The notes below the pieces were generated by a model. That model was given only the letters and a program-made list of their open reading frames with translations. It had not been told where the DNA came from and searched no databases. A stretch of DNA of 61,931 nucleotides, filler included, from Hausera hauseri (Eukaryota): NCBI GenBank assembly GCA_046269625.1. It is 10 parts of 10 records of this genome, joined end to end, with 100 filler letters (N's around TTAATTAATTAA, not from the genome) between each part and the next. Parts side by side here need not be neighbours in the genome. Positions count along the whole stretch, not along the records: positions 1 to 4,528 come from JBJURY010540675.1; 9 more parts are not named here. One strand, written 5' to 3'. The translations under genes and the position numbers were made by a program. Shown piece by piece: positions 1 to 59,270 of this stretch (positions are counted from its first letter, which is position 1; each line of letters begins with the position of its first letter).

Positions 1-2
1 TT

Positions 3-248
3 AAAGGAGGGGGATGTGAGGAGGAATTTAAACGAATATTAATGTTTAAATTCAATTCAAAGTCAATTCAATAAATAACCAATATAAAGTCGAGAAATTC
101 AAAAAAAGGGATGAAAATAAGACTCATTTAATTAGTAAACGAGATAATTGTTATACCAACTTTTATAATAAATTTCTAATGCATAATTCAATCTTACAAT
201 CATTGAATGTCGTTGAGGTCGGAATAGTAAATACGCGATTTTCTAACA
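3..248 (+). mobile_element. Polypurine tract (3-14) plus 3' LTR (15-248, TGT...ACA) of a Ty3/Gypsy element, abutting the pol 5' region of an oppositely oriented element
   Basis: AAAGGAGGGGGA directly followed by TGTGAGGAGG...TTCTAACA; aligns over its whole length with 14144-14384, which follows an integrase C-terminus. Confidence 0.85.
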
Positions 249-1010
249 CTGCCGATGTCATTATCATTTAAAGCTATAATATCTCGATATTTGCGGAATA
301 ATTGCAGTAATTTTTTCAATTCAAATGGGGTTAAATCACCGACTTTAAATTTGATATTTTCATTTTCTACTAAGAATGTTGCTGCGCATAACTTAACTGG
401 TTGTAATTTTCCTAAATTGAGGTTTTGCCATAGTTTGATTGTCTTTTATTAATATTTTCTATTGGTAATTCTAAACTTTGTACTCCTTTTGATACGAATA
501 AGGGATATTATAAAATCTTATATTTTTCATTGTTATATAAGTTCGGTTCAAACACACAAGATTGCTCATGATATTGCGGCTGTATTCTTAACATCACCAT
601 CACTTGTTGTTGTTGTTTTATGATAACATCATGAGTTAGAGTCATACTGATATCCTCAATTGGCAAGTTGTTTAGTGTGTATCTAAGAATCTTGGTTGAT
701 AAATCTATTGAGAGTCCTAAAATATGTGACAGTACATCCATTCCTATCATCAGAGGTACTGGCAGTATTTTATTGTCTGCCACAAATAAAGTGATGGTGT
801 TTAAATTACCATCAATTTTTATTTTGATATATATTTTTCCTAGAAATTGTACTTGAGTGGAATTTGCTGCTTCTATTACTATATTACTCGGCATGATTAC
901 TCCTTTTTGATCGTCCGTTAGGTACGAATGTCGAATCATTGACACTTATGCGCCTGTATCTATTAGTGCATAATATTTAATCCATTAAATCGTACACGGA
1001 TATAGGGGTT
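249..1010 (-). pseudogene. Retroviral-type aspartic protease and pre-RT spacer of an env-bearing Gypsy element
   Basis: PYIRVRFNG..(frameshift)..YALIDTGA*VSMI at ~940-1010; IEAANSTQVQFLG and LMIGMDVL in ORF 508-945; LLQLFRKYRDIIALNDNDIG pre-RT motif cut by the LTR at 248. Confidence 0.85.
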
Positions 1011-1429
1011 ATTTCCCGTTGTAATGATGGTTTGGGTCATAAAAATGAATTTTGTATTATTCCTTCGGGCATCCGTGGTATTATATTGTCGAAGTACGTT
1101 TGGTGTGTATGTTGTACTTGATAAGCAGGTGCATTCACCCAAAGCTCTGGCCATAGAAAGATTGTTTATGGATGTGACCTTCATTTCTCTATTATCAGGG
1201 TATTCCAGGAATTCATCAATAGGTTCGGGTTTATACTATGTTGGTGTTTCTGGCTTGGAGTGTTGTCGAGCTTTCTTCCTCAATAATTTATATTTAACCA
1301 GGTATTCTTCTGCTGTTAATTTAATAAAGGCTAGTAACTGTTGCTCCAATTCTGGGGCTAGATGCGGTTCTTTTCTTAATTTATCAAGTTCCTTCGCATG
1401 CCAATACATCAATACTGATGTATAATTTG

Positions 1430-3232
1430 CAGCATAATTTGCCATGTACAACCACGTACTTTCTTTATATTTCTTGCAGCTCCTATTTGTCTTAAAATGA
1501 CCATTATTGTGGTAATTATAACATATATTCCGAAAACTCCTGATATAACTTGGCCAAAAATAAGGAATTTATTTTACAAATTATAAAGGACCTTTTTATT
1601 TGTTCTTTCTAAATGATCAATTGGCAATAACATTCCATAATTAGGTATACCATCTGATCCTTTCGTAACAGTATATACAAATTCCGTGATGACTTTTTCT
1701 AGGATATTCTGAAATAACACTTGATTTCTTACCGCTTCCAGGTCTGTCAAGGAAGTTCTCTATTTACTTTAAACTTCATCCCTTTATCCAATGGTAATAG
1801 TCCAATAGTCTGAGGTATGTTCATCACTGTTGGTTGGCGTGTTTTAGTGCATCTTCCATCGTTAAGTTTGAAGGCTGGATAAAAGTCTTTATAACATGGC
1901 GCAAAGCTGATTTCAGTAGGTAACAATAAATCTCGAGTAATAGGGTCCACATATCCCATTTTAATTATGTTTTTGTCGTTGTATTGGACCATTAATTCGT
2001 TCGTGCAATTTGCTTTCGGAGATGTTACTGGCGTTACCTTTTTCGGTGGGCATTGGTATACATGGTGTATTTCACATTGTACTCTACCAAATGTTCCAGG
2101 GCGATATCCCATAATTAAGGCAATATATTCGGGGAACTCTCTAACTAGTACCACGTCGTTTTGGTTCAATTTTTGAGTGATTTTACAATCTCTCAGTACC
2201 ATCATATTATAAAATTTAACTAAATTCATTTTTGATGTTTGATAGATATAGTCTATCTTATTATTCGTATATAGGTACCACTATATATCTTCAGTTGGCA
2301 AATTTTCTGTATTTGCCAGAGTTACCTTTGTTACGAATAGATCTTCATAAGATGCCAAATAAACTGCATTCGATCCACAAGTTGATACTGCTCTTTTACG
2401 TGCCAGTACGATTCCGTCTTTGCCACTGGATGACATTAAAACTTTTAGGGAAATGATCTGTCTTAAGGTTCGTGGGGTAGGCAAACTTACATTATAGTTA
2501 TGTTCAGTTTCTTGATATTCGTCGTCATAATATAAATCACCTTGTATTTTGTACATAGATACCTGTTTAAGGAAGGCTAATGGACATATTATGACCGTTT
2601 TTTTCCAAATTAGGGTGGATTCTCCTAAGGTATATACTCCACTAGAATATGTACAGGATGGTGCGGTGAACATTTTTCCTGTTATTGAGTAGAAATTTAC
2701 TTTATATTACTTTATGGTGACGGTATAATCTTCTATTTGTACTACAGCGGATATTTTTTTGTCCACTTATCATCATACTTTCTCCTTTACAGGCTCCGCC
2801 ACATCCAGACCATATTTTTCCGGCTGTAACTATACGTGAATACACTCGTTTTCCTATGCCTGCCTGTAGTGGCTGTTGAAGGCCTACATGAATTGAGTCT
2901 GTGGATTTTCTACAATTTTCGGCTGTTATTGTCACGGGTTTAGGAAGTCCTGATGGAATAATTACTGAGTTCCACAAATTATGACCGCAGTTATAGGCGA
3001 ATATAACTTTATTAACTTGACATTCCTTTACTTGAACTTGTTGATAACTGATTCTTTGATACAAGTTATAATTGTAAGGACCTTCCTTCTTTACTGATAT
3101 CGGATTTGCGTTCTGACATTTGCTGGCTGTTATTTCTGGTTTGGAGCAATCATAAGCTTCTAACGCTTTCGTAGTATTTAGGCTACTAACGGCTATTAAA
3201 TATAATAATAGATGAATAATTTGTACAACCCA
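1430..3232 (-). pseudogene. env: Envelope glycoprotein, chuvirus/herpes gB-like class III fusion type, frameshifted
   Basis: Hydrophobic leader then LEAYDC, ECQVNKVIFAYNCG, GACKG, GTFGRVQCEIHHVYQC, CTNELMV..GYVDPITR, and a C-terminal TM (KFLIF/GQVISGVFGIYVIITTIMVIL) near 1500-1580; collinear with 4629-6429. Confidence 0.8.
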
Positions 3233-3280
3233 ATCTGATACGTTGGTATCTTTGGGGTATATTAACGTAGTGGGGTTAAC

Positions 3281-3646
3281 TTTCTTGAGGATTTCGTCCC
3301 AACCACCTTGTTTGGTTACCCAATCTCTCGTTAGCTTATCCATATGATGGGCTGGGTCCCTTATTATATGGTGTAACTTGGTGTCGACTTCCGTCTGGTT
3401 TTTGAAGCTGACCACTAATCCTAATGCCATCAACAACCAATTTAGGTCACATTCCTTTAACAATCGTATCAATGCTTTATTTAAACCTCCTTTCGGTTTA
3501 TATTTCTGTAATCTCGTAAATTGCGATGAGAAATTTGTAGCAGTTTCTATTATGGACTGCAATGAAATTGTGGAAATTGTTGGTATCTTTTTGAGTTGAT
3601 TTGATTTAGCTTTCTTGATTAATTGTTCCAAAAGTTCATGAGTCGT
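3281..3646 (-). CDS. Bcl-2-family-like domain inside ORF 2702-3859, in frame with the env leader
   Basis: BH2-like DWVTKQGGWDEI (3290-3325), BH1-like LLKECDLNWLLMAL (NW at 3437-3442, canonical GR missing), BH1-BH2 spacing of ~40 aa, followed by a hydrophobic tail. Confidence 0.7.
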
Positions 3647-3859
3647 CAGTGTTACTTTTGGTATATTTATTTCGCTCTGATTTGATATTCCAAGAGCAGG
3701 ATTTTGTGTTTGTTCATTCTCGTAATCAATAATGGTAAATTGTTGGAAATTATCGTATAATATATATTCTAATGTTATCCATTGTTCCTTACGTTTTCGT
3801 GACAAGGATCTTTTTTCTTTGCCTTTCCAGCTTTTCTTCGGGATTTTCTTCATCATCAA

Positions 3860-4528
3860 TTATTGGGTTAAAATCGCATTTTCGTGGTCTTCCTCCCTTT
3901 TTCTTAGTGCCAAATTCCATGATAATCTGATGAATCCTTCCGGTACGGAGTCCATAATCTACAACATAATCATTGTCAACGGCTAAACTGCCATAAACAT
4001 CAGTTTAGCTATTATATTAATTTCTAAATCTAATTCAACTAATACCTTAATTCGAAGATCTGTGAATTTAGTGAACATTCCTGCTGTTACTTCGATTATT
4101 TGTTCCCACTTATTTATTTTGATCTCTATATTTATAATATATGGTTGTTTTCGGCTGTTTTCGTCTTAGGTCTCTTCCTAGAGATTTTAGTAACTTTCGT
4201 GCAGCTGAAAAGAAGAATACATCATCTTTTGTTAGTGGCAATAGTAATGACGCACATTCTATTCGATTAGTTAATGGTAGTGACTCATATTGTTTTAAGG
4301 CACTCCATACTTCATTAGGCGCTGAATCAGCGATTTGTAATTTAGCTTTAATTATTTCAGTTACTGATTCTGGAGGTTCGCCGTATACTATAAAACCTGG
4401 TGGTATATTCACCTACGGCATATTTTTTGGGTTCTCCATTGGCAATAGTGTAGTTTCAGGATACTGGATCAAATCCAGTGCAAGTATCAGTTCATCGTTT
4501 TCTAAGATTTCGAACACTTCGTCTTCAT
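3860..4528 (-). pseudogene. Unknown upstream part of the same polyprotein
   Basis: ORF 4110-4412 and the 3860-4109 interval, which reads in the frame of ORF 2702-3859 apart from three TAG/TAA stops. Confidence 0.5.
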
Positions 4529-4628: not shown

Positions 4629-6429
4629 AAGCAAATAGGTGCTGTTACCGTCTATGACTGCGATAAGTTTAAACTAGGACAGAAGTGCTCTCGAATGGAT
4701 TTAGAAGTATGTGAGGACGCCAGACCACACAAATTGGAAACGAGAGAAAAGTTATTTCCTGTACCAATAACAAGAATTAATATCATAGGACGGAATGGAA
4801 TGTATGTTAAGACGATCTTGTAGCATTTTCCATTGTGGATTAATGCATGGACATTAGTCAATAATCAAACCAACGACTCCTCTAATTCCAATGAATTTTG
4901 AACGCCATCATTGAAAACAGGCCAAGGAAACCGGAAGATTAAAATGGGATAGTATGGAACTAGAGATGCAACCCGGAAAAATAATCAGATTATATAAAGT
5001 AGTGGTTGGAAGGCTAGAGATGCATAATGGACATTGCAACGGAACAGAATATGACACTGGAAAAGGATTAGAAGCAAACGTAGTAGTCGTAGATTTCTAT
5101 GAATCAGAGATGCGAGTACAGAAAGTAATGTTCAGCAGCGTTACCAAGCTATATGCAGAAAATCAAGTGTCATTTACAAGACGGGACGTGTGCTTTTAGA
5201 AGTTCTGTTATAATATGGGTCCTTCCTCTGGAAGAAACTGTAACTTTATCAAAATTAAGGAATTGAAATTTAACGAAACTACCGGAAAACGATATATAGA
5301 TAAATCAGACACCAACTCAAGGACACTCGAGGTTGTAGGAGAGCACTCTACACCTACTATATTAATCTCTGACCAGTATGGGCTAAAATTCATCAAGAAA
5401 GAAATGATCTCTAGCTGTGAAGTGGTGATGTTGGCCACCAATTATGAATCATTTTTCGTCGCCGAGACGAAAATAAATGCGAAAACTTACAAGTTAGAAA
5501 CAGGACATTCGGATTGAAGATTACCTGAAAAACCGAGACGATTACCTTTATTAAAAGGACAAGTTGGAATACCCGAATTATACCACAAAATGATAACAAA
5601 TGATTGTAAATTAGATATGGGAATCATGAGGACAAAACTAGCTCTTATCTATACTAACCCCGAGTTAGCCTCGCCAATAATTCCCATGAGAGAAGGAATC
5701 TTCGGTCGAGTTACCGGTGAAGTTATATTGACTTATAAATGTGAGAGAAGAGACGTACCAATCAACGTTGAAGAAAACATTGTATACAAGAACTTCCCGT
5801 TATTTACCAGAATATTCCAAGATTAGCCACGCCGCTTACTAGTGTTGTTAGACAATGCAACTTAACCAACAATGCTTACAGATTGTAAAGCAAGTTTAAG
5901 AGAACCCATGTTTAGGCGTAGCGAAACAGACTGGGTTAGTTTGCTAAGTGGAGATATTACTGCCGCTCCAAATAAATAAACTGGAACAAATCTTGCAAAA
6001 GGGATTACTGACGATAAATTTCAAGATACCTTATCTAAAGGCATATATAGACATAAGGAAACTGAAGCTTTCAGACAATTTCTCGCTTTTCCGAGACAAC
6101 GCATGCATGAATTAAATCGAGCCATGGACTCCGTAGTAGATGATACTCGATATCAAGCTAAATGGGAATCACTGTTTTGTGTAAATCATTTCCGGCGAGT
6201 AACCACAGAAATACTTTACAAAATTTGGGGAAGATTTTTGATTTTTGAACAAGCCGCATCTGGATTTTTATCAATATATTTCCTAATACAAATGATTAAG
6301 GCCGTCATTCAAGCAGTAATAAATGGCTACGAAATATTTACATTGACCGGATTTTCATGTAAAATACTGACTGCAATAATTACACCTTTTGGAAATTTCT
6401 TAAAAGCATACGAAGAGAATAGATGGTAA
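4629..6429 (+). pseudogene. env: Second chuvirus/gB-like env glycoprotein, frameshifted
   Basis: AVTVYDCDK at contig start, IFHCG, GHCNGTEY, GIFGRVTGEVILTYKC, TM WGRFLIFEQAASGFLSIYFLIQMIKAVI. Confidence 0.8.
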
Positions 6430-7081
6430 TCAGGCATAGAACGTCATGTCGGTTATCATAATCGTAAACGAAAAGGAAGGCTTATGTTCTTGTACAAGCG
6501 GAAATTTACAAAACCTAATACTCGAAGAAATAATTCAGATGATGACGAGCCTAAGGACGGAGAAATACGCCCAAGAACAGACAGACATAAGATGTATTTC
6601 GTCATTAAAGCACCATTGCCTATGCTACCCCCTATTGCTCCAGTCTATGAAGACTGTGACAAGCGATCAATGAGCTTATATCAGACAGAAATCTAGAAAA
6701 GGGCAATTAGTTTAGAAGACCCATATGAAGGAACAAAACGTTACGGAGTCCTACGGAAAATGTGTTATCGACAGCCTCTCGACGATCCCAGAATATTGTA
6801 TTCCCCGAGAGAACCACGGAATATAGAGATTAGGTCACATGTCTGGGAAAATCCAAGGTTAAAAGCCTTCCGGAATATAGAACCCCACACTAACAATCGA
6901 GAACCATTAATTAGTACTCATGAAACTGAAGAATTGAACATGGAAAATAATGAATTATATCCAAACGGAGAATTAATACAATTGTCGGAAAATATAGCAT
7001 CCTTTCCAGAAATCCGAATAAACGGACGAATAAATTAAACTCCCAAAAGTTGCATCAAACTGTTTTGGAACAGTAATAGAA

Positions 7082-9600
7082 GGGCGACCCTTCGCCAAAG
7101 TTATTGAAGACTGGGAAGTTTATGCATTAATCGGTACAGTTTCCGAGATGTCTTACATTAAAAAGGATTCAATACCTCAAACGTTGAGAAGACAATTATA
7201 CCCACCATCTACAAAGGATCCATGAAATAAAGGAGCTTTTGGCCAAATGTCGAAACCCATGTTTAAATGGAATCAAGAAGTTCAAATAGTGGGACAGTTT
7301 TTCCACCATGAATTTGCATTTATGGAACAATTAACTAACGATGTAGTTTTAGGATGTAATCTACTCAAAAGACTGCCAAATATAGCAATTGACTTGCAAA
7401 CAGGAAAATTAATATAAATCAGACCAAATAAAGGCGTAAAAACGCTAAGGATAGAAAATTTGGAGAAGTGTGGATACCAGTAGATGAAAATATTCCACCA
7501 AGAACAGATATAATAATCTACGCGCAGATTCAATAAGATGACGATCAACCGGTATATTTCGAACCAAAGGAGACATTAAATCCGAATATAATACTTAGTA
7601 ACATACTGACAATAGTATACTCCGGTCGTGTGCCATCAGTAAGAGGCTTTAGATAGACTCTCAGGAGCAAAGTGGTTTAGTACTCTGGATTTACAATCAG
7701 GGTATCGGCAAGTAGAAATCGAAGACGAAGACCAATATAAAACAGCATTCAAAACACACGATGGTGTTTATAAATCCAACGTCATGCCGTTTGATATTAC
7801 TACCGGATCGGCCATATTTACGAGGATGATGAACAAAATGTTATTGGGGTTAGATCATGCTTTTGCATATTTATATGATGTAATGATAGTGTCAAGAAGG
7901 GAAGAGGAACACCTAAAGTATATTGAACACACACTGATGAGACTGGAACAGGCCGGATTGAAGTTAAGTCCAAAGAAATGCAAATGGGCTCAAAACGCAG
8001 TATCCTGCCTTGGCCATATAGTTGGAGAAGGAGGATCAAAACCAGATAAATCGTTATTAAACAAAATATCGGGTTGCATGGAACCACAAAATCAGAAAGA
8101 GTTAAGGCATTGGCTAGGACTCTGCGGATATTATGACAATTATGTACCAGACAATTCGAAAATAAACGCACCATTATACCGTCTACTTAAAAAAGGAATT
8201 AAATGAAAATGGACAGATGACGAACAGAAAGCTTTTGACGAAATGAAGAAGATATTAAAGAGTGAACGAGTTTTACGATACCCAGACTTTAACCTACCCT
8301 TTATAATCAAGACAGATGCCAGCAAAGAAGGTATTGGGTATGAATTAGCACAGAAAAGAGAAGGTGAAGAATTAGAACATCCATTTGCTTATAGAGGACG
8401 GTCCTGGAAAAAGGCCAAGAAAAACTATTCTGTCACCGAATTAGAAACTTTAGCCGTAAAAAAGGCGCTTCGACATTTCAACGTTTATGTGTGTGGGCAG
8501 AAAATCATAATTGTTACTGATCATAAAGCCGTCACTACCCCAAAAGTACGAGCAAATAATCCAACATGCAGACTTAACAGATGGATAGAAGAAATCTCTA
8601 GATATGATATCGAATTTCAGTATAAGCCAGCAAATAAACATGTACACGCCGATTCGCTATCAAGATTAAAGATTAAAACAAGTGCAATCACTGTAATGAA
8701 GAAAAGTCAGCTTGAAGAAATAATAGATTGCCAACGCGCCTTAACGATGGATAAAGCGATTAAAATCTCAACCGAACAAAGGAAGGATAGAATTATCCAG
8801 CAGAATATAGGATTTGCTGAGAAGTACATAGTACCAAAAGGACGACAATTAAAGAAACATCTACGTGGACATGGACACAAATATTGCGTTCTGAACAAGG
8901 GCCCAGAAAACTTTCTATATTATGATCGAAAAGGAAGAAAACTGATAGTTATTCCGAAAAATTTACGAACTGAAATTTTAATGTCAGAACATGATTGATA
9001 TTCGGCAGGACTCATGTCCTGTAAGAAAACATTAGACAGAATATTGAACAAATATTTTGGGCCCAGCATTTATATTGATGTAAAGAATTGGGTAAATGCT
9101 TGTGAAGTATGTGCGACCAAGCAAAAGAAAACGAAAAAGTACATGGCAAACTGAAACCAGTCGACGTGCCGGACATACCCATGCAGGCCATATCAATGGA
9201 TATCGTAGGACTATTACATACGACCCATGAGAATAATAAATATATCTTAACTTGTATTGATCGGCTAACTCATTTTGTTGAGTTGATAGCGCTAATTGAT
9301 CAAAAAGCAGAAACCTTGGCTAAAGCTGTAGTTAGAAGAATCATTTGCCGATATGGACTGCAGACCAAATATTGACAGATCGAGGAAGAAATTTTACCAT
9401 TGAACTATTTGATAATATTAGCAAAATATTTGAAATCGAAAGGTTAATTACAACTGCGTATCATTCTCGGTGTAATGGAATGGTTGAACGAACGAATGCA
9501 ACTGTCATACGCATACTATCAATCGTAGTAGCTAAGGACCAAAAAGATTGAGACGAATTTTTAGGAGGAACTCAATTTGCAATTAATACCACTCCGCATC
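7082..9600 (+). pseudogene. pol: Ty3/Gypsy pol (protease-RT-RNase H-integrase), degraded, truncated at contig end
   Basis: RPFAKV..YALIGTVS (decayed DTGS), WFSTLDLQSGY, KTAF, MPF, YLYD (YLDD), IKTDAS, NYSVTELE, TDHK, HVHADSLSR, SMDIVG, ILTDRG, CNGMVER. Confidence 0.95.
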
Positions 9601-13843: not shown

Positions 13844-14384
13844 AACAACAGGGAAGAACCCAGCAGAAATAATATTTTGAAGAACAATACATAGAGAGAG
13901 ATGACATGGACAGAAGAAAACAATAGAATCAACGAGGAGCAACGACCCAGAATGGATACCAGCAAAATGGGTATTCCAGGTCGGAGAAAGCGTATTAATA
14001 TAGAGAAAATCAGGAGCAAAAGATAAAGACAAATATGAAAGGCCGTACGAAGTCATCGAGAGAAAACATGACCGATGATATGTACTGCAACACGCGGACG
14101 GCAGAACCCTGGAAAGAAATGTGGAAAAACGGCCAAAATTCTTAAAGGAAGGGGATATGAGGAGGAATTGAAACGGATATTAACGTTTAAATTTAATTAA
14201 AAGATAATTCAATAAACAGCTAACAGAAAGTCAGGAAATTCAGAAAAGGAAAATAAGCCTCATTTCCCGAGTGAAGGAGATAAGTGTTATATAAACTTTT
14301 ATAATAAATCTCTTATGGATAATTCTATCTTACAATCATCGAGTGATGTTGAGGTCGGCACGGTAGAGACACGATCTACTAACA
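13844..14384 (+). mobile_element. 3' end of a Gypsy element: integrase GPY/F tail, PPT (14144-14155) and 3' LTR (14156-14384)
   Basis: FQVGESVLI*RKSGAKDKDKYERPYEVIERKHDR*Y..RNVEK, then AAAGGAAGGGGA and an LTR homologous to 15-248 ending CTAACA. Confidence 0.85.
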
Positions 14385-19957: not shown

Positions 19958-20573
19958 GTCATCGTCGTCGTCATACAAAATAAAATTCACGATTTGTACA
20001 AAAAACGAACGCATTTACAATGATAATGATTTTAACTTTTTAACAATGCGTTTTTCAATTGCATTTTTCACCCGAATCCGTTGAACTGATAGTGAGGTGG
20101 TTAAAATATAAAATTTTCCCCAACTTATGGGCAATATATGAGACCCATTTTTATCACCGGCAGACTTGAACATGGGAAAATTTTACCCGACGGAAATTTT
20201 CCCAACCGGTTTTCTCCATGTTGCCTTGGTCAGACGAAACCGTGTCCATTCGACTTGCCAACACCAATTTTACCTCTGTACAAAATTTCGGTATACCACA
20301 AACATGTGTTGCGTTACTAGTTGCACATTGTCCGTTTTCTTCTTCCACCTCCTGTGCCGCTTCTCGGCGCTGTTAACTTTTGTTTGCCTTGTTCGACTCG
20401 ATCAATTGGTTTCAGTTCAAAGTCCATTGCCCGACCTTCTTCTTTCCCCGGGAGGGGGTCTCCGACCATCAGACATGAAATGCTCAGAATAGCGAGATAG
20501 GTAGGAAAACTGGTTCTCAGCTCGATCTGAGCACTTTTTGGGAAGTGGGCTGAAGCCTACAATTCTACCTACT
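19958..20573. repeat. Polinton terminal (TIR) region ending ...TTCTACCTACT (reverse complement AGTAGGTAGAA)
   Basis: About 600 bp homologous to 57757-58410 and 58440-58993; all three end at the same CTACCTACT; AGT-type termini are typical of Polintons; lies outward of the PolB gene. Confidence 0.75.
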
Positions 20574-21887: not shown

Positions 21888-22512
21888 TTAGCATTTTATG
21901 GGGAATGAATTGTCTGATATTGCAGCAAAGTCAGTGTCGGATTTCTGTACAGAATGATCGTAGTGACTTGTGTTGTTGTTGTTTTCACTTTCGGTATTTA
22001 AGATTTCGAGAGACTGATTCGTAGAAATGGGTGAGGAGAAGGTATTTTGCATTTCGCTTGTTGTATCGATGGTTAGGTTTTTGTTGTTTTCGGTGCCTGT
22101 TCTTTTCGGCCTTGGACGATAACGGTAATCAGGATGTTCTTCCATATGCTGTTTACTGAGTCGTGATTGTTCTTCATAATGCAGCCGTTTTTCTACCGTC
22201 GACATAGATTTCCATTTTTTTGCCTTCAGAAATTTTACTTCTCTTCTCACGAGACCAGACCATAAATGCATTCATTGGTCGTTTGTCGTGATTTTCGCGA
22301 ATCCGTCCATTCATTTCACCTGGTCTGTTTGTTCTAATTATGCGTGTATTGAGTAGAGACAATGGTTCAGATTTCAATGATTTATTAACAGATACGTCTA
22401 GCGACATCGCATTTTCTCGATCATTGGACTTCATTGAGCAATTCGAATTGGTCGTTTGTGGAGTCGCATTGCGGATAACGTAATTCGGCACTGACAAACC
22501 CGGTCCAGTCAT
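21888..22512 (-). pseudogene. SoxD: SoxD (Sox5/6-like) HMG-box fragment with internal deletion and frameshift
   Basis: [20 protein letters not shown] and [40 protein letters not shown]; the PDMHNSNISKILG segment is absent. Confidence 0.9.
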
Positions 22513-23169
22513 ATTTGGCAGAATCGAATTAAATGTTTAGATTGATTCCGGAAATTGCATTATTATTGTTGGTGTTTTGAGCGAACTGCTGATACCAGAG
22601 ATAGAACTGAGTAAGAATTTCTGGATTGAAATGACTACTGGACATTATCTTATTCAAGACGCAACGATTTTCTGTTCGTGTTTGATGGTAGGTTTTTTTT
22701 GTCAATTTTGTCTTTATTGATTATTAAAACAATCATAATAAATACATTTAGTCAAAAAGCTATATAATAGCTTAATAACCGTTGTACGAAGAGCGGTAAA
22801 CAAACTGCGTTCGGGAGCGTGCATTATAAAACATCTGAGGTGTACGATATGAGAAATATAAATTTATGAATGCTAAAGAAAATAGTTTGAATCAATATGA
22901 TTGTCAACTAAGAGCAACCACTAATGACCATGTACTTGATTTCAGTGATGGTAAGGCACCAGTTGATGTTTCCCTTGATGGTCCACGATAATTATTCATC
23001 AGCGGTTCTGATTCTGAAAATGTTTGTCGTGAACTGATAGAACCGGTGTTCTTTATGAATTTTTGATTTGTCACCATATTGGAATATTCAAACTATTCTT
23101 ATTTGAGGATACTGTTCTTGGAATTTACAGTTGGTGTCAGCCGGTATTTATGACGTTTATCTTTACTTT

Positions 23170-24330
23170 GGACGTTTATGCACAACATCAAGCATTGCGA
23201 TCAAAAGATGATTTGATTGAAATCATCCACTTGATCTGAATGCCTTGAAGGAATTGTTGTCGAAGAAATTTACATTTTTGCTGAAAAAGGACAAAATGTC
23301 TGGTGCCAGTGTTTGCATTTTCACGGCACAATGTCATTTTCCAACAGTAAGCAGTCACCAGAATGTGCTGAAAGCACTGATGTTTCAGTTGGATGCTGCT
23401 TTGTCAACAACTGCAGCACAAAAAAAACGGACTGCTATTTCTTTACAACATGACGGAATCGTTGTATTCAAATCTTGACGTTCAGCCGAATTTTAAAATT
23501 CTCAATTTGCTTAAGGGAGCTTATTCGGCAAAACTAACTAAAGTAATTATTTATACACCACCACTGTGGTTTCGTGCATCTTTCAATCTTCGACTTTTTG
23601 TCAAGGAAAAGTTGCAAAATCGAATTTTTATCGTAACATCAATGGATTCATTACATCAGCATGTGACAAAAGATATTTTGCCTCCGAATCTTGGCGGTAG
23701 CAATAACCACTGCCATAGTCAGTGGCAAAGAAAGGCATTCTTATTGATGGGATATTATGAATCGATGCATCCTTCCGCACTTTACGGTCATCAGACTAAT
23801 GGACTTTCACAGCCGCTCAAAACTCTACCGAAAATCAATAACGTTACCGGCAATAATTCATTCGTTGGTACGAATCGTAACTGTGGTGCGTTGAAATCTG
23901 AAGAAGACGATACAAGTGATTGGGATTTTACAACTGTCAACGGGAGTTTGACTGACACTTCATCAAAAACGAAGGAATTGTCTCCTCAGTCCAATTGTAG
24001 TGCTGTGCCTGCATTCGGCCGGAATCAAGTCAAAAATCACATCGACATCCGGAATCGTTAGTTTGGATCAGAACATGTGTCCAGCAACTTACGAGATCGA
24101 TCCACCAAACCTAGCAAATAACATCGGTATTGATTTGTATCCGTCAGTCGATATTTCATTGCACAATGATCAAAACAACAATTCAGCAAATGAAAACAGT
24201 GACTGTGATATGCTTTCGATCAGTAGTTGGGAGTTAAATTTGGAACAAAGTGGTGATAAAGATAATGAAGATGACTGTCAGATTATAAAAACAATGGAGG
24301 CACCGAAATATCACGATAATATATTCCACC
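23170..24330 (+). pseudogene. PTPN9: PTPN9 (PTP-MEG2)-like N-terminal Sec14/CRAL-TRIO domain and linker; phosphatase domain absent
   Basis: ELLSKKFTFL, LKALMFQLDAAL, QKNGLLFLYNM, KILNLLKGAYSAKLTKVIIYTPPLWFRA, LFVKEKLQNRI, LPPNLGG; frameshift in an A-run at ~23420. Confidence 0.85.
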
Positions 24331-24334
24331 TTCT

Positions 24335-26760
24335 CAATCGATCTCAGTTTTCCAAGTCAAGTGAAGTCAGTCAGAAATCCGAAGTTCGGACGTTATCGGC
24401 TGTTACGTCAGTTTCTTTGCAATCCGGATGCAAAACATTGGTAAATCATCGAAAATCGCTGTATTGCTCAAAAAATGTACCGAGGAAAACACGAAATGCG
24501 TTTTGCAAAATAATCAAAAATATAAGTTGTCACAACATGGATTAGTGAAAAGCATGCAAATTGCAAAAATAACGCGATTCGTTCTGCGTCAAATTAAAAC
24601 TGAAGCAATTCAAGACGAAGTTGCAGCACCAACGGAAGAGAATCTCAAAGAATTTTTACCGAAAAATCTTACATATAAAGTCTTTCAAAGCTCTAAACGC
24701 AAAGTGGGCCCGGTTAAATCTAAAAAGTTGTTGAATTGCTTACGTCAGATGCTTCTAAACGATTCAAAGTAGTCAAATATTTTGCATTGATCTGCAAATC
24801 TGCAGACAAACCCGGTCCGGTTGAATTCATGAAAATTTGGCAATTGTGCGTAATATTAGAAGAATGCGTCTTTCGGAACTGTAATCATACAATTAACGAT
24901 GTTTACATGTCTCGGATAAAAGAACTGTCAGATTTCTTCAAAAAACAAGTTGACAATCAATTATCATTTAACTTCTTTCAACAGAAAATTCTGCCATCAA
25001 ATGTAGCGGTAATGTCCAAAAAGGATTTAAAAAAAATTACTGCAGTTCGGCTTCACCGATTAACGACGTTTCACCTAACAATTCGGAGACAAAATTGTAA
25101 CAGCTTTGTCTAAAAAGGGAATATTTAATGTATTACGAGACACAACATATCTTCACTGACAGCATTTGTATGATATCAGCTGTAAAATATGTAACCTTGG
25201 TTCCAAAATGACATCAACTGATAAAAATGGCTGCCTTTAATTAAAAGAAATTGGCAACAACAGTAGTCAGACAAGCGACGAATTCAATGTCAGCAGTTCG
25301 GTTAAAACTCCTGATATGTCTGTCGATATGAATATCTGCTCAACACCATCAGGTGACGGTACGAATAAACAGGATTCATGTGAACCGGTTAATGTTACAA
25401 ACAATATCGTTGATTCATCTGTGTCTGCTTTACTAAATTCTGGTGTTCCAACAAAGACCAAAAAGAAGATGACATCCATCTGGGAAGGTGATATAAATGA
25501 TGAGGACATAGGAACAGTAAAGTGCAAGTAATATCTCATTTCACTAGTGTTACTTGGTGAGTCTGGGGACGAATCGAATGCCATGGTAGAAGATGGAGAT
25601 GAATTACGGGACTCAATAAATCTCAAGTATAATTTGATGGACAAAATCACAATATTTGGACGCATCAAGTTACCCGTTGTTCAAGATTATTTGACAAAAC
25701 TGAAAAAGCGTATCAATAAAGAAATTATTTTGCGACTTCATCCGTCAGATTTGAAAGGTCGCACGATGTATCTTTTGTTATTCCAGTATCTTTACACTCA
25801 TGACAGATGTGGTGTTGTAAATGAGAAAAAGATGGGCCTTAAAGATTGTTACATTTATCCTCTTAATGCTCCCTCTTCAATACATCCGCTTTTCTTACCT
25901 TTTGTAGGTCCAGGATTAGAGAGGCGTAGGCCGCATTTATTACTCCTTATTATCATTCGAACGCCATTGGATAGGCTCAACTATTTGCCAATATCACCAA
26001 AATACGACCAGAATCATGAGATAGCAAGTAAACACGGAATCAATTTAGAGAAAACTGTACACTTCGCTTTGTCAAGCGGCAAAGATTCTGATAATAATAA
26101 TGTTAAACGTCCAGAAGTTATTCTTGATCAGGTATTCAATTGTTCCAATAAGTTGAAAGAAGTTAAAATTCAAAGAGAATGTCATGATACTGATAGGGAA
26201 TTAGTAGAATTTGAATTCTTGGAACAAACTGCTAACGTTTAAATTAGTAGTACTGCTAGTTCAATTGCTTTGTTCGACGAAGAAACGTTAAGAGAAAAGT
26301 ACCAAAAAATAAAAAGTATGCCTCTACCTGAAACATTCTTATAAAAGAAATATTCGGATTCCATAATCAACAAACGTGAAGTTTCAAAATTTATTACAAC
26401 GGGAAGTAATGTGTTTATTCACGTAAATTCTTTGTGCAATGAGGAAGCATTTGAATTATCAAATGAACAAGATGAGGAAGAAAATAATGATGATGATGAT
26501 GATTACGATGAAGCTGTTGATGCAAATGTGAGCAGTTTGTCAACAAGACTTAGTGAATATTACGAAGACTCATTATCGATTGACCATAACTCAGAGTAAT
26601 TCCAAGAGCTCGATTTTACCACGGAAAATATCTAAAGAAAATAGTCGGCAGGAAACACAGAATTCTTGTAACAGTGGTGACGAAGTCATTGATTGGCCCA
26701 ATGAGAGTCCGTTTGAACTGAATAGAACCACAGTAAAAGATATGTGGACGTTTAATAACG
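24335..26760 (+). pseudogene. PHF3: PHF3/DIDO1-like fragment (TFIIS-M and SPOC domains)
   Basis: TFIIS-M-like LEECVFRNCNHTINDVYMSRIK; DTTYLH*QHLYDISCKIC at ~25140 (cf. DTTSQHRAHLFDLNCKIC); SPOC IWEGDI..ITIFGRI..YLYTHDRCGVV..KDCYIYPL..PFVGPGLE..PHLLL. Confidence 0.85.
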
Positions 26761-26785
26761 ATGAGTAAACATTTAAATTAAACTC

Positions 26786-27782
26786 ATGCAAATCTGCGAA
26801 GAGTCCAGCGAGGCACTCAACATATTTCCATTACCATCAGGCTTATGCAGAAATGCTAGTCTATACGGATACTTAATTCCTGTCGAACATGTTTTGGGGA
26901 AAAGTGTTATTGCAGTGGATGAGACAACCACTCATGGACGCAAATGCTATAAACCAACGATTAGACATGGTTGAATTTTTGGTATCGGATAACAGTGTGC
27001 GACTTAATCTTTATGATAACCATTTAAGGAGAATTCTCGACTTGCAAAGAATAATTAAACATCTGAATAGAAAAGACGCAACGTTGCAGGATCTATTCAA
27101 ATTATATTTGTCTTTGAAACAGATCAACGAGATATATCATTTACTGGATGGACATCAAGGCCAATATAAGCATGTTATTGAATCTGAATTTTCAGCCACG
27201 AAGGAACTTTGAGAATCAACAGATAATTTCGTTTCTATGATTGAATCAACTATAGATTTTGATGCCATAAAGGGAAATATGGAATATAGAATAAAGGCAG
27301 ATATTGATGAAAATCTTCACGAACGTAGCTCACAAATTTCCGTTTTGACTGTACAATTGGAAAAGGAATTTTTCAAAGTTGCCAGACAAATCGGCATTGA
27401 ACCGAAAAAGCAAGTTAAATTGGAATCATCGAAAAATTTGGTTATTACATGAGAGTTCCGCGCAAAGATGAAACAATTTTGCGAGATCAAAAAAATCTCA
27501 ATGTTATCGAAACACTAAAGGATGATGTGAAGTTCCATTCTCAAAAAATGGCAAATCTGAATGAAACGTATTTGAAATACTTGTCAGATTATGGTGAATA
27601 TCAAAAGAGTATTGTTGATCAGATAATGCGTATTTCAAACGAATATTCTGCTTCCATATACAGAGTAAGCTTATTGATTGCCAAATTGGACGTGTTTTGC
27701 AGCCTTGTAGTTTCTGCTTTATCTGCTCCAGATACCTATGTGCGACCGTCCGTTAAAGCTGACGAACCCCGATTCATTAAAC
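26786..27782 (+). pseudogene. MSH2: MSH2 central fragment (core/clamp domains), ATPase domain missing
   Basis: ALNIF..SLYG..LNSCRT..QWMRQPLMD..INQRLDMVE, LQDLFKLY, MIESTID, VKLES, AKLDV..APDTYVRP; several frameshifts and stops. Confidence 0.92.
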
Positions 27783-29835
27783 GTTTCAGTCAGTATGTTA
27801 TCTACAAAACACCTCGCAGTAAAACAGGTAAGAATTCGGTTACCCCGAAATCTGGACCCGCAGTGGCAAAGCTGAGGTCCCGGCCGCCCACTGCACCATT
27901 GGGTTGGATGGCACCGTTCATTGCCGCCCCACAACACGCCCCCGGACATATCACCTCCCTATTCCATCTTTTTTTAAATAACAAATATATTCATACATAC
28001 ACAGCATTATATTTACACACTTCGGCCATTCACAACTTCATCTCTACCTTACTCCACTTTCCTGACTTCTACCTCACATACAATGGATCTGTAATGTCTT
28101 TCGCTAAACCCCTCCAACCTTCTACAACTTGTGTCTGTATTACATTCACTTCGGTTTCCGTGGTGGCATGGATTCATCACCCACAATTGATACCACGGAC
28201 AAACTCACCAAACCACAGATCCCTATCATACATTTACCGAAACAAAGCGCTTCAAACACTCTTACACAACACACCCTCCTCACTCATTCACCCTGCACCG
28301 AATACTTCCTCGACAACCAAAACTTTACTTAAACATGGCTAAAACTGCACCAGTTTTGGCTCCAATCACAAAATGTCGTCGACTCTTTATCCTAAGCCAA
28401 CAGCCTCTTTTTCCACTTACCAGCTTCCATCAAAACTAAAATTACCAATATCATCGATATCCTTCATCACACTGACCCATATACTCAACTTTATAATGCC
28501 ATTCTCAAGCTTACTGAGCCTTCAATCTATTCAATCATTTAAAGATTCTTCAACGATAACGCCATGGACCTTCAGAAGCCTTCTGAATTCTTACGCACAT
28601 CCTTGTCTCAACTTAATACCTCTGAGCATAGTCCAGAACTTATTCATCGTATTTCTTAAATGTATTGTCCCTTCAAGTAAGAGTTTGGCTAACCGTAGTC
28701 GAAGACTGCAAAGCTCTAGACAAGCTAGCCGAACTGGCAGACAAAGGTTACGAAGTACTGCACTCACACACAGCACAAACTATCTCTGCGGCATTAACAA
28801 CAGACCAACAACAACAAAATGCAATGCTGCAGCAACAAATTGCGCAATTATGCACGGAAAATGAAATGTTACAAAGGACAATAAACACTATAAACGAAAA
28901 ATTAAACGAATTAGCGCTGCCTCGACGAGGTTTTTCTAGGCCTGCTTCCCCTAATTTATTTAATCAACGTCAAAGACGGTCGCCTTCGGAGCGCGGTCAT
29001 TAATTGGCTATTATCATAGCAAATTTGGTAACAATGCTCAAAAATGCTGCATCGGTTGTAAAATCGGTTGTAATCTTAATCAAATAAGCAGCATTTCGGT
29101 GACTGCCCCGACGATCGCCTCCAGCAAGTCAATACTGAAAAGAAACGACTTTTGATTTAAATTATTTTTATAATCATAAATTATACAGAAATTTTTACTA
29201 CGGTGACAAATACGATATTGCCAACTGCGTGGCACCTATTACTGATACTACAGCTGTCAACACCATCTTCAACACAAACGTGCTCCATCAAATACCACCC
29301 AGTCGTAACACCTTGTCTATAACTAATACTTCAACTGCATCAAGTCACGATGCATCGACACCATCTAACAACTTTTCATCGTTGCTTTCTGATCTACAGC
29401 AATACATTTCGTCTTCCTGCACGAGTCTGTTACAGAAGGACAAATCATTCGTAGTACCTCAATCCACTTTCCATCACATAGTAACAACACATCAGAGACC
29501 AATACGTCAAAAGGTCCGTCCGATATCGCCTCGTCGCAGAGAGGCAGTGGAGGCTGAGTTTCTCAAACTGGAAAAATCAGGAATAATTAGAAGATCAAAG
29601 TCCCCGTGGTCTTCACCACTACATGTGGTTCCAAAAAAGATGGTACCTTTCGCCCATGCGGTGATTACCGCCAACTCAACACTATAACAACAATGGATGC
29701 CTACCCTCTACCATTAATCAGTGATATCCTTCAGAGGCTTCATGGTGCGACCATCTTTTCCTGCATTAATTTGCACAAAGCATACCACCAAATTCCTGTT
29801 GCCCCAGCAGACTTTCCGAAAACGGCTGTCATTAC
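27783..29835 (+). mobile_element. Ty3/Gypsy element: possible PBS (~27837), gag and start of RT; protease not visible
   Basis: Gag DPYTQLYNAILK..QKPSEFLR..LDKLAELADK; YYHSKFGNNAQKC knuckle at ~29010; SGIIRRSKSPWSSPLHVVPKK, RPCGDYRQLN, DAYPLP, KAYHQIPV. Confidence 0.9.
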
Positions 29836-32351: not shown

Positions 32352-34844
32352 TTACATTAGTGCAGCATGTCCATGAGGCAATGTACTGATTCCATCTTCA
32401 AGAATTTGCCTTTCATCATCGAACCAATCGAGGCTTTTCTTCCGCAGAGCAACCGTGGCAATCTGATGTTCCCGGGACTGGATCCTCTTCATTTCGCTGA
32501 CTATGTGAGTTTGTTCCCGCCACACTCTCTCAAAATCTGCAAAGCTTATGTCTTTAGCTAATGCGGCCTTTTGAACTCCCTGGGCTCGCTTCTTTGCCTG
32601 ACCACCTACATCAATGGCGAACATTTTTGATTTCAACGCCACGAAACGAGTGATGATCTTCCCATTCACTTCGTCTTTAAACTTCCCGAGGACCTTCTTG
32701 TTGGCGGTTGAATAATTTGGATGATCCTTCGGATAGTCCGAGGTATCCATATACTGCACCAATTTTGCAAACTTTTCAAAGATATCATCTGTGTGGATCT
32801 GGTACATGAAACTGTCCGGGTCCATGTACATTAGCTGGAGCTACTTGAATGTGGGGACCATGATGTTGTAATAAAAGTCATACATCAAGGTCTTGGATAG
32901 ATCCAATATGGACATGCCCACATATATAGGCTTGTTGAACTCAAGTGATATCTTGAGCATATGGATGCTCACCAGGTTCTCCGTGTAGATTGTGCTGCTG
33001 TGGAATTTGGACATAGCGATGAGTTTCTTTGCCCTCTTCCAGTCACATACCAGCTCGATATTTATCCGGTTGCGGATGTTCTCCATAGTTTTTCCAAAGA
33101 CCGAGTTGTTATACAACTTCAATCGGTCATTTTCAAACTCGCTTTTGGCATTGGTCCTCAACTGGGTATTAAGGTCTAGGTATGGATTCAGCCATTTGGA
33201 CTGGCTGAACTGCAGGGCCCGATGAATCTTGATGACTCGGAGTCCATTTTGGATAGCCTGTTGGAGATTTATGTAATGGGCTGCATACCTCTCCCTGTTT
33301 TCGAGGTGACAGAGCAGCTTCTTACACTTGCCATTTGGTGGCTTCTTGCTCTCCGGGAGAAAAGGCATCTGCTCATGCCTTGTGTCGATGCTATGTGGGT
33401 ATTCCACGTCCACCTCCGGAATATAGCCCGTATCTCCATTGGGATCCATACCTTCAATATCCGGGTCTTGCGGCTGCTCCATCCATTGAAAGTTATCATA
33501 GGGCAATAGGTTGCTCATTGATCATCCATACAGATTGTTGGCATACGGGTATTATATATGAGGATTCCTGAAATGTATCATAATCTGCCATGTATTTGTT
33601 GTTGGCCTCACTGTACTTGTGAATGGCCTGGCAGATTCCACCCCTGATGCTCCTGTCAATCATAAGGACCATATTGTAATCCTTCAAGATTTTGTGCATA
33701 GTTGCCCAACTCATTCCTGAACCTGTAAAGAAATGGGCTGGATCTAACTTGTGGCTCTTAAGATCACATTCGGGAAGCTTTCGAAGACATCAGTAAGCAA
33801 CAGCACATCTGTGAGGAGCTAGATATCACTGTATTCCCCTATTGTCCTGTACTGGAAGGTATTACTGTATGACAACTGACTATAGAAGTCCTTTTTGGCC
33901 GGTAATGCATCTTCATCCAGTGCTTTCAATGACGTTATATAGTCATAGGGGAACACTCCTTTCCGATTCACCAGATCAAATGTATCCGGGAAGAACCTCT
34001 TCGTCTCCTTGAGCTCATCAACCGGAAGGTTCTTCACGAGGCTGTCCAGTAACGAGTTCATGAAGCGGAAGCTTTCGATAAAGGGAAGTCTAATACGGCC
34101 CACATGCTTTGTGAAGTTGATGTACTTCTGTTCACTATTTGGAATCACATCAATGTTCCTCTCAATATTACCAAATTCTCGAACAATGAAGTGGGAGTCG
34201 TATCCACTAAGATTGTGGAATATCACGAGAACATATGTACATCTCTTGCAGCGTATGTTGCAATTGTTGCACACTGCTCCTCGGTATATTCCTGTAAAAT
34301 GGCAGTGATCCCTGACTTTGTGATTGTCCCATGTGAATGGCTTTCTGCATAAGTAGAATGTTGATGCTTTGCGCCATTCACATTTTTCTTTCTGTGACAA
34401 CACCATGTGGCGCTTATGCTTCTGCAACATGTCTTAAAGTTTTTGGGCATACTGTTCCATATACTGCTTAATGTGTGCTGCTGCATTTACAGCCCTGTAT
34501 AGATATGGCAATTTGCACCTTCTGCATCTCCTGGAACTCTTTGAATTCCAGGTAATCTTCCTTGGTGAATTCTGCTACGATGCAATAGTAGGTCTTGTGC
34601 TCCTCCAGCTTTTCTGCAGCTGTGTTTCCATTAAATTGGTAAAGCATCTTTTGCATATTTCCAGCCTTGATTTATGCTTGGATATTTGGGATCCTACGAG
34701 GCGCTCAAAATTCTTGACCCACATTAAATGCCTCTTTTCTCCATCACCCAGCAGGAGCAGATCCCTATGATCCTCCAATTTCTCCTTGCACACATGTAAG
34801 GGATAAAATTTGTCCTCCTCCAATCCGAAGATGTTGATGGAGAT
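32352..34844 (-). pseudogene. polB: Second Polinton-type protein-primed DNA polymerase B with EndoVII-like domain
   Basis: VRDHCHFTGIYRGAVCNNCN, FHNLSGYDSHF, RKGVFPYDY, IRGGICQ, KLYNNSVFGKTMENIR, KPIYVG, YMDPDS (YxDTDS), GKFKDE, TLPHGH. Confidence 0.95.
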
Positions 34845-39959: not shown

Positions 39960-42900
39960 TTAGTTTTCCTCCAACATGTGTCTCACTTGCTTGGTGGACA
40001 AAGTACAAAGGTCAGCTTCCTCAAAGATACTTTCAATAGCTAATGTTAATTGTTTAACATCTGGCTCAATGCCCTGATTATGCAGACGAGCATTTCTCAT
40101 ACCCATTTCTGTGATCAACATATTTCTTAGGCGCATAATGTCATTTTCATTAGCATCTGGTACTTCTTTTATTTCCATCAGATCATTGGCCTGCGCTTTT
40201 TTCTTTCTTTTCTGTCGCAACGTTGCCTGTCGTGCTGGTTTTGATCATGGTAGCGAGTCAGCTGAGGTACTAGAATCTCTAAGTCGTTTCCATCTGCGAA
40301 TCATTTCATCTGTATCAACTAAGTGGAATCCGATGCATTTCTCTCATCACTTTCGCTTTCAACCATTTGAGATTGTTCATTTTCTTGAGCCTGCTGTTGC
40401 AACTGACGTTCGCGATACACCAACCTTTTCTTGCGTTCTAACAATGGCATATCAGAGTCATCTGATGAACTACTTAGCTCAACTCTTCGACTATTACATT
40501 GTTGTCTCCTAGCTTCTTCAAACTTCCTTTTAGCCGCAGCTCTAGTGTTCTGGTATGGGGCATCCGTTTCTGTTTGCTGTCATGGATTATTGCTATTAGA
40601 CTCATTGTCTGTTCTACACGTCCCTTGTCTCGTACTCTTTGGTAAAATAAGCGGGGGCGTACACACTTCATATCTTGTATCACTCTCAGACGTATCGGAT
40701 AATTCCGTTCGATCTGTGTCCCTAGATTCTTCCGAGTTCCTGTTCTCAGGGGGTACAACATAACTGGATCGTCTAACCATACCTGTCGTATCTGGTAGCT
40801 GTTCGGTAGGAAACGACCTATCATCTCGTCTTAACTGCGACGTTGTAACTCTTGCTGTTTGTCCTGTGAGTTGATTGGAGATGCGATAGGATATAGGACC
40901 TAACTTTTCAATGATGGTATATCCTGTAATCCATCTATTTTGCATTTTCGAACTTCGGTGATGCTGTCTGTAACAAACTTTATCGCCAATTTTGAACTCT
41001 TGATGCACAGCAGTGTTATCAGTTCTTTTCTTGCGCACTTGGAATGACTTAGGTATTGGTGAAAATCATCTCCATGGTATCGAAGTCGTGGTCGAACTAG
41101 CAAGTCTACTGGAAGAATAGGATCTCTACCGAAGATCATTTCAAAAGGTGAGAATTTTCTACTTCCGTTTTCCATCATTCGCAACGTCATGGCAGCTTGA
41201 TTCAAATATAAGTCCCATTCAGCTAACTGATCCTTCGCATATTTCGTTATGACGTCATAAATGACCTTGTGCTGGCGTTCGTTAACACCATTAGCACCTG
41301 GATTATAATATGAAGTAGTTATATGCTTTATATGTAACTCCTTCAACGTTTCCTTCATTGCTCTGTTTACGAACTCTGTGCCGTTGTCAGTAATGATTTC
41401 CAAAGGGCAACCAAAAACAGGTATAAACTTTTCCAGTAGAACATCAATAATGTTCTCAGCAGCTTTATTGGGTAACGGATGCAGTTCTGGCCAGCAGCTA
41501 TAAATGTCGACGATGTGAAGAATATAGACATTCCCGGATGCAGTCAACGGATGTGGTCCGGACAGGTCTAAACTGACTTTCTCAAAAGGGAAATGAGCCT
41601 GTGTGGGTTCCTGCATAGGATGTCGTAGTATGTCCATATTTCTCAAACGACATGGCTGACAATTCATAACATATTCTGCAATAGCTTTCTGCACGTTTGG
41701 CCAATAATATTTCCTGTTTATCATCGTAAACGTGCGGGCGCGTCCAAGGTGTCCTAAGTTGTCATGAAATTGAGTCAACCACTTATGCGTCATATGACTA
41801 GGAATGCATAGCTGAAATGTGACTTCACCGCTCAATCTGTACAAAACGTTATCATCCAGGATATACTTTTTCCACTTAGAAGAGCTGCCATTTACTTCCG
41901 ATTTCAAATCACTGATAATTTGACGAAAGTCAGCATCTTTTTCTTGCTCATCCTTCATGCCTATAACTTCTATATCACTTGGCTCTGATTCAAGGTTACT
42001 GTATGTTTCGGACTGCTGTGGTTCCATCGCATTGATGACAGAAACTTGGAGGGTATAATCATCAATGTCGGGTATTTCATCTTTACTTTCTGGCTCGATT
42101 TCTAACTGATCTTTCACAGGCATACGGGAAAGCACATCAGCGACTGTGTTTTCCGGACCTGGTATGTATTCGATTTGCATATTGTAACCTTGCAAATTCA
42201 AGACCCACGGTTGAATTCTTCGATTTTGCACATCCGATCGCATCATCGCTTTTAGAGGCATATGATCAGTTTTGATCTTGAACTGACTGTTATGCAGGTA
42301 AAAATGGAGTTTTTGAAGTGCAAAGTGAATAGCGTAAGCTTCTTTTTCAGTAACAGACCACTTCTTTTGGGATTTTGTGAGCCTGTGGGATAAGAAGTAT
42401 ATGGGTTTCTCCTTGATCTCAGTCGTGCCTGTTTCCGTTAATTGCTCTTCTTCCTGGACGAGGACTGCTCCTATAGCATAGTCTGATGCGTCTGTATACA
42501 GAACATATGGCTTGTTTGGATTCGGATATGCAAGCATCGGGACTATGGAGAGGCTAGTCTTCAAATAATCGAAAGCTTTCTGACAAGTTTCATCCCACTG
42601 AAAACGGGCGAATTTCCTCGTTAGCGCAACTATTGGTTCTGCTATTGCTGAGCAATTTTGGGATAAAGCGTCTATAATATCCACATGTTACCAAGAATCC
42701 GCGAACTTCTCTAGTGTTCTTTGGTACACCCATCGATCTAATTGCCTGAACTTTTTCTGAGTCCGCCTTGATGCCTTGTTTCGTAATAACAAATCCCAGA
42801 TATTTAGTCTCTTGTCTCAGAAATTCACACTTGCTGAGCTTCAGACGAACCTTGTGCTGGCGTAACCTGTCGAAAACAGTTTCAATATGCTGCAGATGGT

Positions 42901-58993: not shown

Positions 58994-59270
58994 TGTATTT
59001 CTTGTCGAAAGAGTAAAATTCAGAAAAGAAATACAACATGTAGCTTGTTTTTCATGAGCGGAGATTGCGTGTTTATGGCCCATTTGTCGGGCGTATTTAA
59101 GTCATTGGTAACAATTTCAAATATTTAAATAAATTAAATATTGGACATTCTACATAAATATGAGACATATTATTACATAGATTTCGAAACGAATACCCTT
59201 TGGGATTATTTCGTTTGAAAAAATATTCTGAATACACGACATATTCGGGAGAGCAATAGGGAAATCTTAT

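Follow-up and report, generated by a model that had tools for sequence, protein, structure and literature searches.

The locus in contig 1

The window, that is the whole stretch of 61,931 nucleotides of Hausera hauseri DNA that we analyzed, consists of 10 contigs joined by N spacers. It is AT-rich and packed with decayed mobile elements and gene fragments. The locus described here is contig 1 (positions 1–4528). Very probably it carries the truncated and decayed remains of one copy from a high-copy LTR retrotransposon family whose env precedes the protease. The family is likely Ty3/gypsy and Burro-like, and it likely encodes one long polyprotein with likely SUMO-like and Bcl-2-like cargo domains. 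The copy is read on the minus strand, so that higher coordinates lie upstream.

The env region (1430–3163) encodes a class III (gB/chuvirus-type) fusion glycoprotein, interrupted by stops at 2707–2709, 2281–2283 and 1574–1576 and by frame breaks near 2758, 1752 and 1430. Its three pieces match PF24664 (Monjiviricetes_fusion; E 4.2e-10, 4.7e-18 and 7.2e-9), which we take to be a class III fusogen family. A search for protein relatives (to 3436 residues) returned P0001 only. The env of the window is 56–87% identical to P0001, whose own env matches PF24664 at E 1.9e-63. Seven of the eight cysteines in env domains I–II of P0001 are kept in the window copy.

Two hydrophobic helices accompany env. 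The first (3164–3241; core 3185–3241, Kyte-Doolittle 1.75) is the predicted internal signal peptide of env and may in addition anchor the tail of the Bcl-2-like domain described below. Ahead of the env start, positions −3 and −1 are small residues, the pattern that the signal peptidase cleavage rule describes. The second (1493–1567, Kyte-Doolittle 2.53) is the predicted membrane anchor of env.

Downstream follows a hydrophilic coding linker (1008–1430), which we predict to be the cytoplasmic tail of env plus a spacer. It carries one stop (1236–1238). Across 966–1430 (155 codons) the best frame has this one stop, compared to 10 and 16 in the others, and none of 2000 mononucleotide shuffles has so few. 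The linker has no Pfam match, and no repeat of it elsewhere in the window scores better than E 0.097. The first strand of the protease (981–1007) sits in the linker frame.

The aspartic protease itself (721–1007) has a frame break near 980, the motif ALIDTGA at 949–969 and a stop at 946–948. It matches PF13975 (E 9.9e-5) and PF00077 (E 0.0022), both under the Pfam curated cut-offs. The spacer between protease and reverse transcriptase (249–720, cut at 249) contains what we take to be a pre-RT motif. These ~150 codons have no Pfam match at E 10. The dUTPase-like domain that occupies this position in Burro is thus unseen by Pfam here (the Burro paper used HHpred). Reverse transcriptase is absent from contig 1, which is cut after the protease.

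A preliminary description of this locus had read env, its transmembrane segment, a linker of ~150 amino acids and an ALIDTGA protease in this order on the minus strand, with no LTR between env and protease. PF24664, hydropathy and PF13975/PF00077 bear the order out, the class III fusogen agrees with the class III-type family matched, and no LTR was found in the interval, where the linker is coding-like and free of repeats. That the parts follow one another directly holds for order and spacing. It does not hold for an open frame, because stops and frame breaks interrupt the copy. The limits of the region as first drawn are real ones: position 3232 marks where the first helix begins, and 249 the edge of an inserted LTR. 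They stop short, however, of the likely Bcl-2-like and SUMO-like domains just upstream of env.

The insertion occupies positions 1–248 (plus strand), after the protease, and consists of a polypurine tract (1–14) and the short 3' LTR (15–248, TG..CA) of a different LTR element in opposite orientation. An 80% copy at 14142–14384 in contig 4 ends at the same base and has, by eye, an integrase-like tail just before it. Hence another element has inserted after the protease, the opposite way round and at a later time, and has cut the contig 1 copy; we base this on the polypurine tract, the LTR ends and the copy in contig 4. The LTR at 15–248 is therefore no boundary between env and protease. We reject a nested insertion between the two, since the one LTR detected sits beyond the protease and comes from a different element. 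The stretches 1–248 and 13844–14384 outline a compact LTR element with a short LTR (~234 bp) and a polypurine tract directly after the integrase tail. That both contigs carry a copy suggests a common source genome for contigs 1 and 4.

Domains upstream of env

The region 3272–3661, directly ahead of the first helix and with a GGWD motif at its end (3287–3322), is likely a Bcl-2-like helical domain. It shares an ORF (2705–3859) with the start of env and is 70% identical to P0001. The sequence signals for the assignment are weak. PF00452 scores E 0.13 and 0.089, below the curated cut-off. TIGR00865 (bcl-2), also below its curated cut-off at E 0.0069, is the only NCBIfam match across all 1963 residues of P0001 and falls on the GGWD region; the window ORF itself has no TIGR00865 match. 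In a profile search against the PDB, 49 of 55 rows are Mcl-1/A1 (best E 0.12), and the three best rows are designed thioredoxins (E 0.003–0.07). On this stretch of P0001, four further Pfam families reach equal or nearly equal scores.

Structure prediction gave two AlphaFold models of the domain, both poor, with mean pLDDT of 49.9 and 37.7. A Foldseek search with the first model has no match at E 0.001. Among the matches listed, 40 of 42 are Bcl-2-family chains (GIV66 presumably being one), but with E of at least 1.1 and TM-scores of at most 0.30, and the PDB is rich in Mcl-1 entries. VIA-align places no Bcl-2 chain among its best 50 rows (best Z 6.5), and Atlas returns one unnamed row at 0.77. 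With phmmer, P0001 finds nothing in the PDB at E 1.

Further upstream, beyond a charged linker (3662–3890; frame break near 3830; 48–55% identical to P0001), lies a likely ubiquitin/SUMO-like domain (3891–4153), frame-broken near 4004 and 68–74% identical to P0001 1024–1112. Searching Atlas with P0001 1022–1112 gives PF11976 at 0.85 (rank 5) and PF00240 at 0.83 (ranks 21 and 27), both leads only, as unnamed rows at 0.85–0.86 rank above them. The two halves of the domain in the window, taken alone, have no Pfam match. Both the Bcl-2-like and the SUMO-like domain are ~70% identical between the window and P0001, a conservation on par with that of env. The last stretch (4158–4528), which is cut by the contig end, has an unassigned fold and is 53% identical to P0001 937–1021; 4113–4412 has no Pfam match. 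No gag was found in the window copy, where contig 1 ends at 4528.

An intact relative

P0001 is one unbroken ORF of 1963 residues and is collinear with contig 1 from 4526 to 1430. It holds the Bcl-2-like and SUMO-like regions and env in a single ORF, with ~1350 residues preceding env in the same frame. Thus both P0001 and the window ORF at 2705–3859 show env in frame with upstream domains. Two hydrophobic helices only are found in P0001, at 1336–1359 and 1904–1935. The protein ends just past the env anchor and before the linker, and so gives no view of a fusion between env and protease. Apart from env it has no Pfam match, and neither gag nor BIR, ankyrin or MATH was detected; the ORF may start after gag. 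No related loci occur among the viral contigs or the metagenome contigs searched.

Two stretches of the P0001 N-terminal part deserve mention. Residues 1–310 form a long Arg/Ser/Asn-rich low-complexity region without a gag match, possibly the nucleocapsid-like tail of an unseen gag. Around residues 370–480 the protein resembles, by eye, what is presumably a DEDDh-type exonuclease with degenerate catalytic residues, although Pfam and NCBIfam return no match there. Such a domain would be cargo beyond that listed for Burro in the available text of PMC6431247.

Decay of the contig 1 copy

In addition to the three stops in env, the one in the linker and the one in the protease, the copy has frame breaks along its entire length (near 4155, 4004, 3830, 2758, 1752, 1430, 980 and 480). 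We compared it to the public run X1, in which 0.26 of the sampled words are present and which may not be independent of the source of the window. No RNA run is listed as carrying window words. At 80% likeness, 17,062 X1 contigs fall on contig 1 and cover 30 of 30 bins. Their summed depth is 139,000–213,000 on the LTR (1–248) compared to 1,000–30,000 inside.

Among the matches listed (40 of 955 and 40 of 118), X1 differs from the window at three of the five stops (946–948, 1574–1576 and 2281–2283) and has indels at four of the frame breaks (near 1420, 2753, 3830 and 4155); the other two stops fall outside these matches. These differences point to decay of the contig 1 copy. The X1 contigs also tile the junction downstream of env. 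Records 6 and 7 span the step from env anchor to linker, and records 2–5 cover the linker up to the protease motif. Judged by net length, env and linker would stay in a common frame in record 6 but not in record 7. Position 969, inside the protease motif, is bridged by no listed X1 record, and 26 contigs have loose ends there.

A second family with env before pol

Contig 2 (4629–9600, plus strand) carries env, linker, a protease-like stretch, reverse transcriptase, RNase H and integrase in this order. Its env (4629–6426) matches PF24664 at E 2.9e-33. Read in the frame of env, the 203 codons of the linker (6427–7035) contain two stops, and one of 2000 shuffles has as few. The frame shifts between the linker and the protease-like stretch (7034–7420), which is assigned by eye and has no Pfam match. 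A gypsy-type pol with the order PR-RT-RH-IN is completed by reverse transcriptase (7643–8203; RVT_1, E 1.2e-24), RNase H (8207–8995; RT_RNaseH_2, E 1.3e-32) and integrase (from about 9130; rve, E 0.0017). The env of contig 2 is 24% identical to P0001 and hence marks a separate family. For a tree of reverse transcriptases contig 2 is a better handle than contig 1.

The preliminary description had also proposed a lineage with the order gag, env, pol, probably expressed as one polyprotein. Such a lineage, with env before pol and likely a single polyprotein, is supported by the same order in contig 2, the X1 tiling and the in-frame upstream fusion in P0001. Gag was found neither in the window copy nor in P0001, and a single frame from env to protease is not seen in an intact copy.

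Other features of the window

Contig 5 holds a decayed protein-primed DNA polymerase B and endonuclease VII (32355–34433; PF03175, PF02945). By eye, fragments at 14544–17181 in contig 4 are similar to these, and both may derive from Polinton-like or related elements. Contig 4 also contains clustered host-like genes that are partly broken and seem to lack introns (21891–28339: HMG box, CRAL-TRIO, TFIIS_M with SPOC, MutS), followed by a gypsy-like gag/protease region; the genes are possibly captured or retrocopied. In contig 8 a PARG catalytic domain (50945–51403; PF05028, E 5.3e-37) lies near a retrotransposon gag fragment (48627–48929) and is possibly cargo of a mobile element. Contig 7 has a fairly well preserved gypsy-type pol (40903–43803, minus strand; RNase H, H2C2, rve). 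An imperfect inverted repeat of ~390 bp (67.5%) occupies 59264–59653, and 20014–20573 and 57795–58729 have repeats in common.

Comparison with known elements

The arrangement in contig 1 resembles that of Burro, a giant gypsy-like element of planarians. As described in the available text of PMC6431247, Burro elements exceed 30 kb, have long LTRs and encode PF11976, BCL2, env, protease, a dUTPase-like domain and reverse transcriptase, with env in frame between gag and pol. The same text cites Grohme 2018 and Jurka 2007 for Burro/GYPSM1. Burro/GYPSM1 (PMC6431247) and contig 1 are alike in the order of a SUMO-like and a BCL2-like domain, both likely in contig 1, an env related to mononegavirus fusion proteins, a protease, a spacer and reverse transcriptase, ahead of which contig 1 is cut. 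In contig 1 and P0001, as in Burro, env is fused in frame to the upstream domains. The decay of contig 1 into fragments with stops and frameshifts is also what PMC6431247 describes for Dugesia japonica. In contrast to Burro, BIR, ankyrin, MATH, Smc and gag have no match in the window fragment or P0001, both of which are partial; one Burro-like element in PMC6431247 is likewise described as missing MATH from ORF1. The likeness to Burro is one of description and does not come from a sequence tool.

A second group for comparison is the GAG-ENV-POL "ancient errantiviruses" with gB-type env, which PMC13524379, in the portion available, reports from Nematoda, Bryozoa and Platyhelminthes, including six elements from Schmidtea, one with 215 copies. 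That paper cites Sacco et al. 2022 for these elements, treats GAG, ENV and POL as three ORFs, with gaps of up to 2000 nt allowed between ENV and POL in its search, and finds that the elements are not monophyletic. In its main text "apoptosis" has 0 occurrences, and none of the passages listed with "bcl" concerns Bcl-2. Contig 1 is like this group in that env lies ahead of pol and a gB-type env sits between two hydrophobic helices. By eye, the eight env cysteines of P0001 are in register with six Schmidtea "C1a" rows, and not with ten bryozoan rows, in supplement 2 of PMC13524379. The elements listed in that paper are intact, whereas the contig 1 copy is broken.

The mentions of BURRO1 and BURRO4 in the available text of PMC8532177 concern silenced transposons only. 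The contig 1 family shares a trait with elements that are not gypsy-type, namely a chuvirus/gB-like glycoprotein in an LTR retrotransposon.

In BEL/Pao elements env normally lies 3' of pol. Anakin-type BEL/Pao elements carry a chuvirus glycoprotein (Dezordi 2020, as cited in PMC13524379), and their pol is BEL/Pao rather than gypsy-type.

Env before pol had been presented as a departure from the usual order. The novelty implied there falls, as the order is already in PMC6431247 (2019) and in PMC13524379. The contig 1 family is likely a new family of published layout, with both the env-first order and the cassette in print; hence its novelty is low. From its sequence the family likely works like Burro, and it likely belongs to Burro proper.

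Alternative explanations

The same order of domains could be distributed over separate ORFs. ORF1 would then end after the env tail, for example at the stop 1236–1238, and pol would be made by read-through, by frameshift or from a separate message. P0001 does end right after the env anchor, although its end may be either a stop or a contig end. The stop 1236–1238 may be shared with X1, as it is not among the differences in the 40 of 118 X1 matches listed; however, linker sequence both before and after this stop is coding, and the linker frame carries the first strand of the protease. The frame change of contig 2 just before the protease and the three ORFs of PMC13524379, with gaps up to 2000 nt, fit separate ORFs, while the available text of PMC6431247 puts env in frame between gag and pol. 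If a stop or frameshift in the linker is shared, pol would be made at a lower level by recoding. On balance we regard a single frame as probable and separate env and pol ORFs as somewhat unlikely.

It is improbable, though less so than a chance arrangement, that the element is a GAG-ENV-POL element of another, non-Burro lineage whose upstream domains merely resemble Bcl-2 and SUMO. Every Bcl-2 and SUMO signal is weak, Burro was compared by description and not by tool, and the first 900 residues of P0001 show none of the Burro BIR, ankyrin or MATH domains in Pfam; GAG-ENV-POL elements, moreover, are not one lineage according to PMC13524379. Yet the two weak calls fall in exactly the order published ahead of env (PMC6431247, available text), TIGR00865 picks out the GGWD region and nothing else in the 1963 residues, and env resembles the Schmidtea rows of PMC13524379 by eye. 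Chance adjacency, in which nesting or misassembly brought the pol of one element next to the 3' env of another or to a mononegavirus-like endogenous glycoprotein, is largely refuted and very unlikely indeed. The contig is short, nesting does occur (the LTR at 15–248), PF24664 is a family of RNA-virus glycoproteins and no listed X1 piece runs from env to protease. But the interval between env and protease has no LTR, repeat or non-coding gap, X1 contigs with a summed depth in the thousands tile the junction, P0001 joins env to 1350 residues upstream of it, and the same order recurs in the contig 2 family despite an env only 24% identical.

A possible mechanism

Bcl-2 domains as a rule carry a membrane anchor at their end. 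The first helix sits where this anchor would be and thus may serve both roles. From the topology we infer the following course for the polyprotein. The N-terminal part would be made in the cytosol, until the first helix routes env into the ER. Signal peptidase would cut the first helix and leave a membrane-anchored Bcl-2-like product. Env would fold in the ER lumen, and the second helix would stop transfer. The linker, the protease and the rest of Pol would return to the cytosol on the env tail, from which the protease of the element would free them.

Our tentative proposal, which we put forward as a doubtful but not far-fetched one, is a composite. The first helix would do double duty, anchoring the tail of a captured Bcl-2 and serving env as its signal peptide. 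Signal peptidase would split the polyprotein into a Gag-side half that ends in the anchored Bcl-2 and an Env-Pol half, and Pol would enter particles on the env tail rather than as Gag-Pol. The family, without detectable BIR, ankyrin and MATH, might represent a sister lineage of Burro with a simpler make-up, and its host might lie outside the planarian families with reported Burro. Among the titles and abstract beginnings searched, none treats a dual-use helix or the packaging of Pol on an env tail; Grohme 2018, Lee 2026 and the figure supplements of PMC13524379 may cover them.

Implications

The main gain is the extension of a known group by one or two families. Of use beyond that are a second and third divergent family with env-first order within a single window, together with P0001, an intact relative that fixes the layout as Bcl-2-like domain, helix, env, helix. 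Env would give cell-to-cell infectivity, and the Bcl-2-like domain would likely delay the death of the producing cell. For Burro1, a captured BIR domain reportedly protects stem cells of planarians (Lee et al. 2026, as cited in the available text of PMC13465017), which raises the question of a similar role for the Bcl-2-like domain. A further question is the route of Pol into the particle, given that a membrane-spanning env stands between it and Gag. With env and pol in one frame, cleavage would place Gag and Pol on separate products, and packaging of Pol would then depend on the env tail or on some other contact. If true, packaging of Pol on the env tail would be a route unlike that of other LTR elements.
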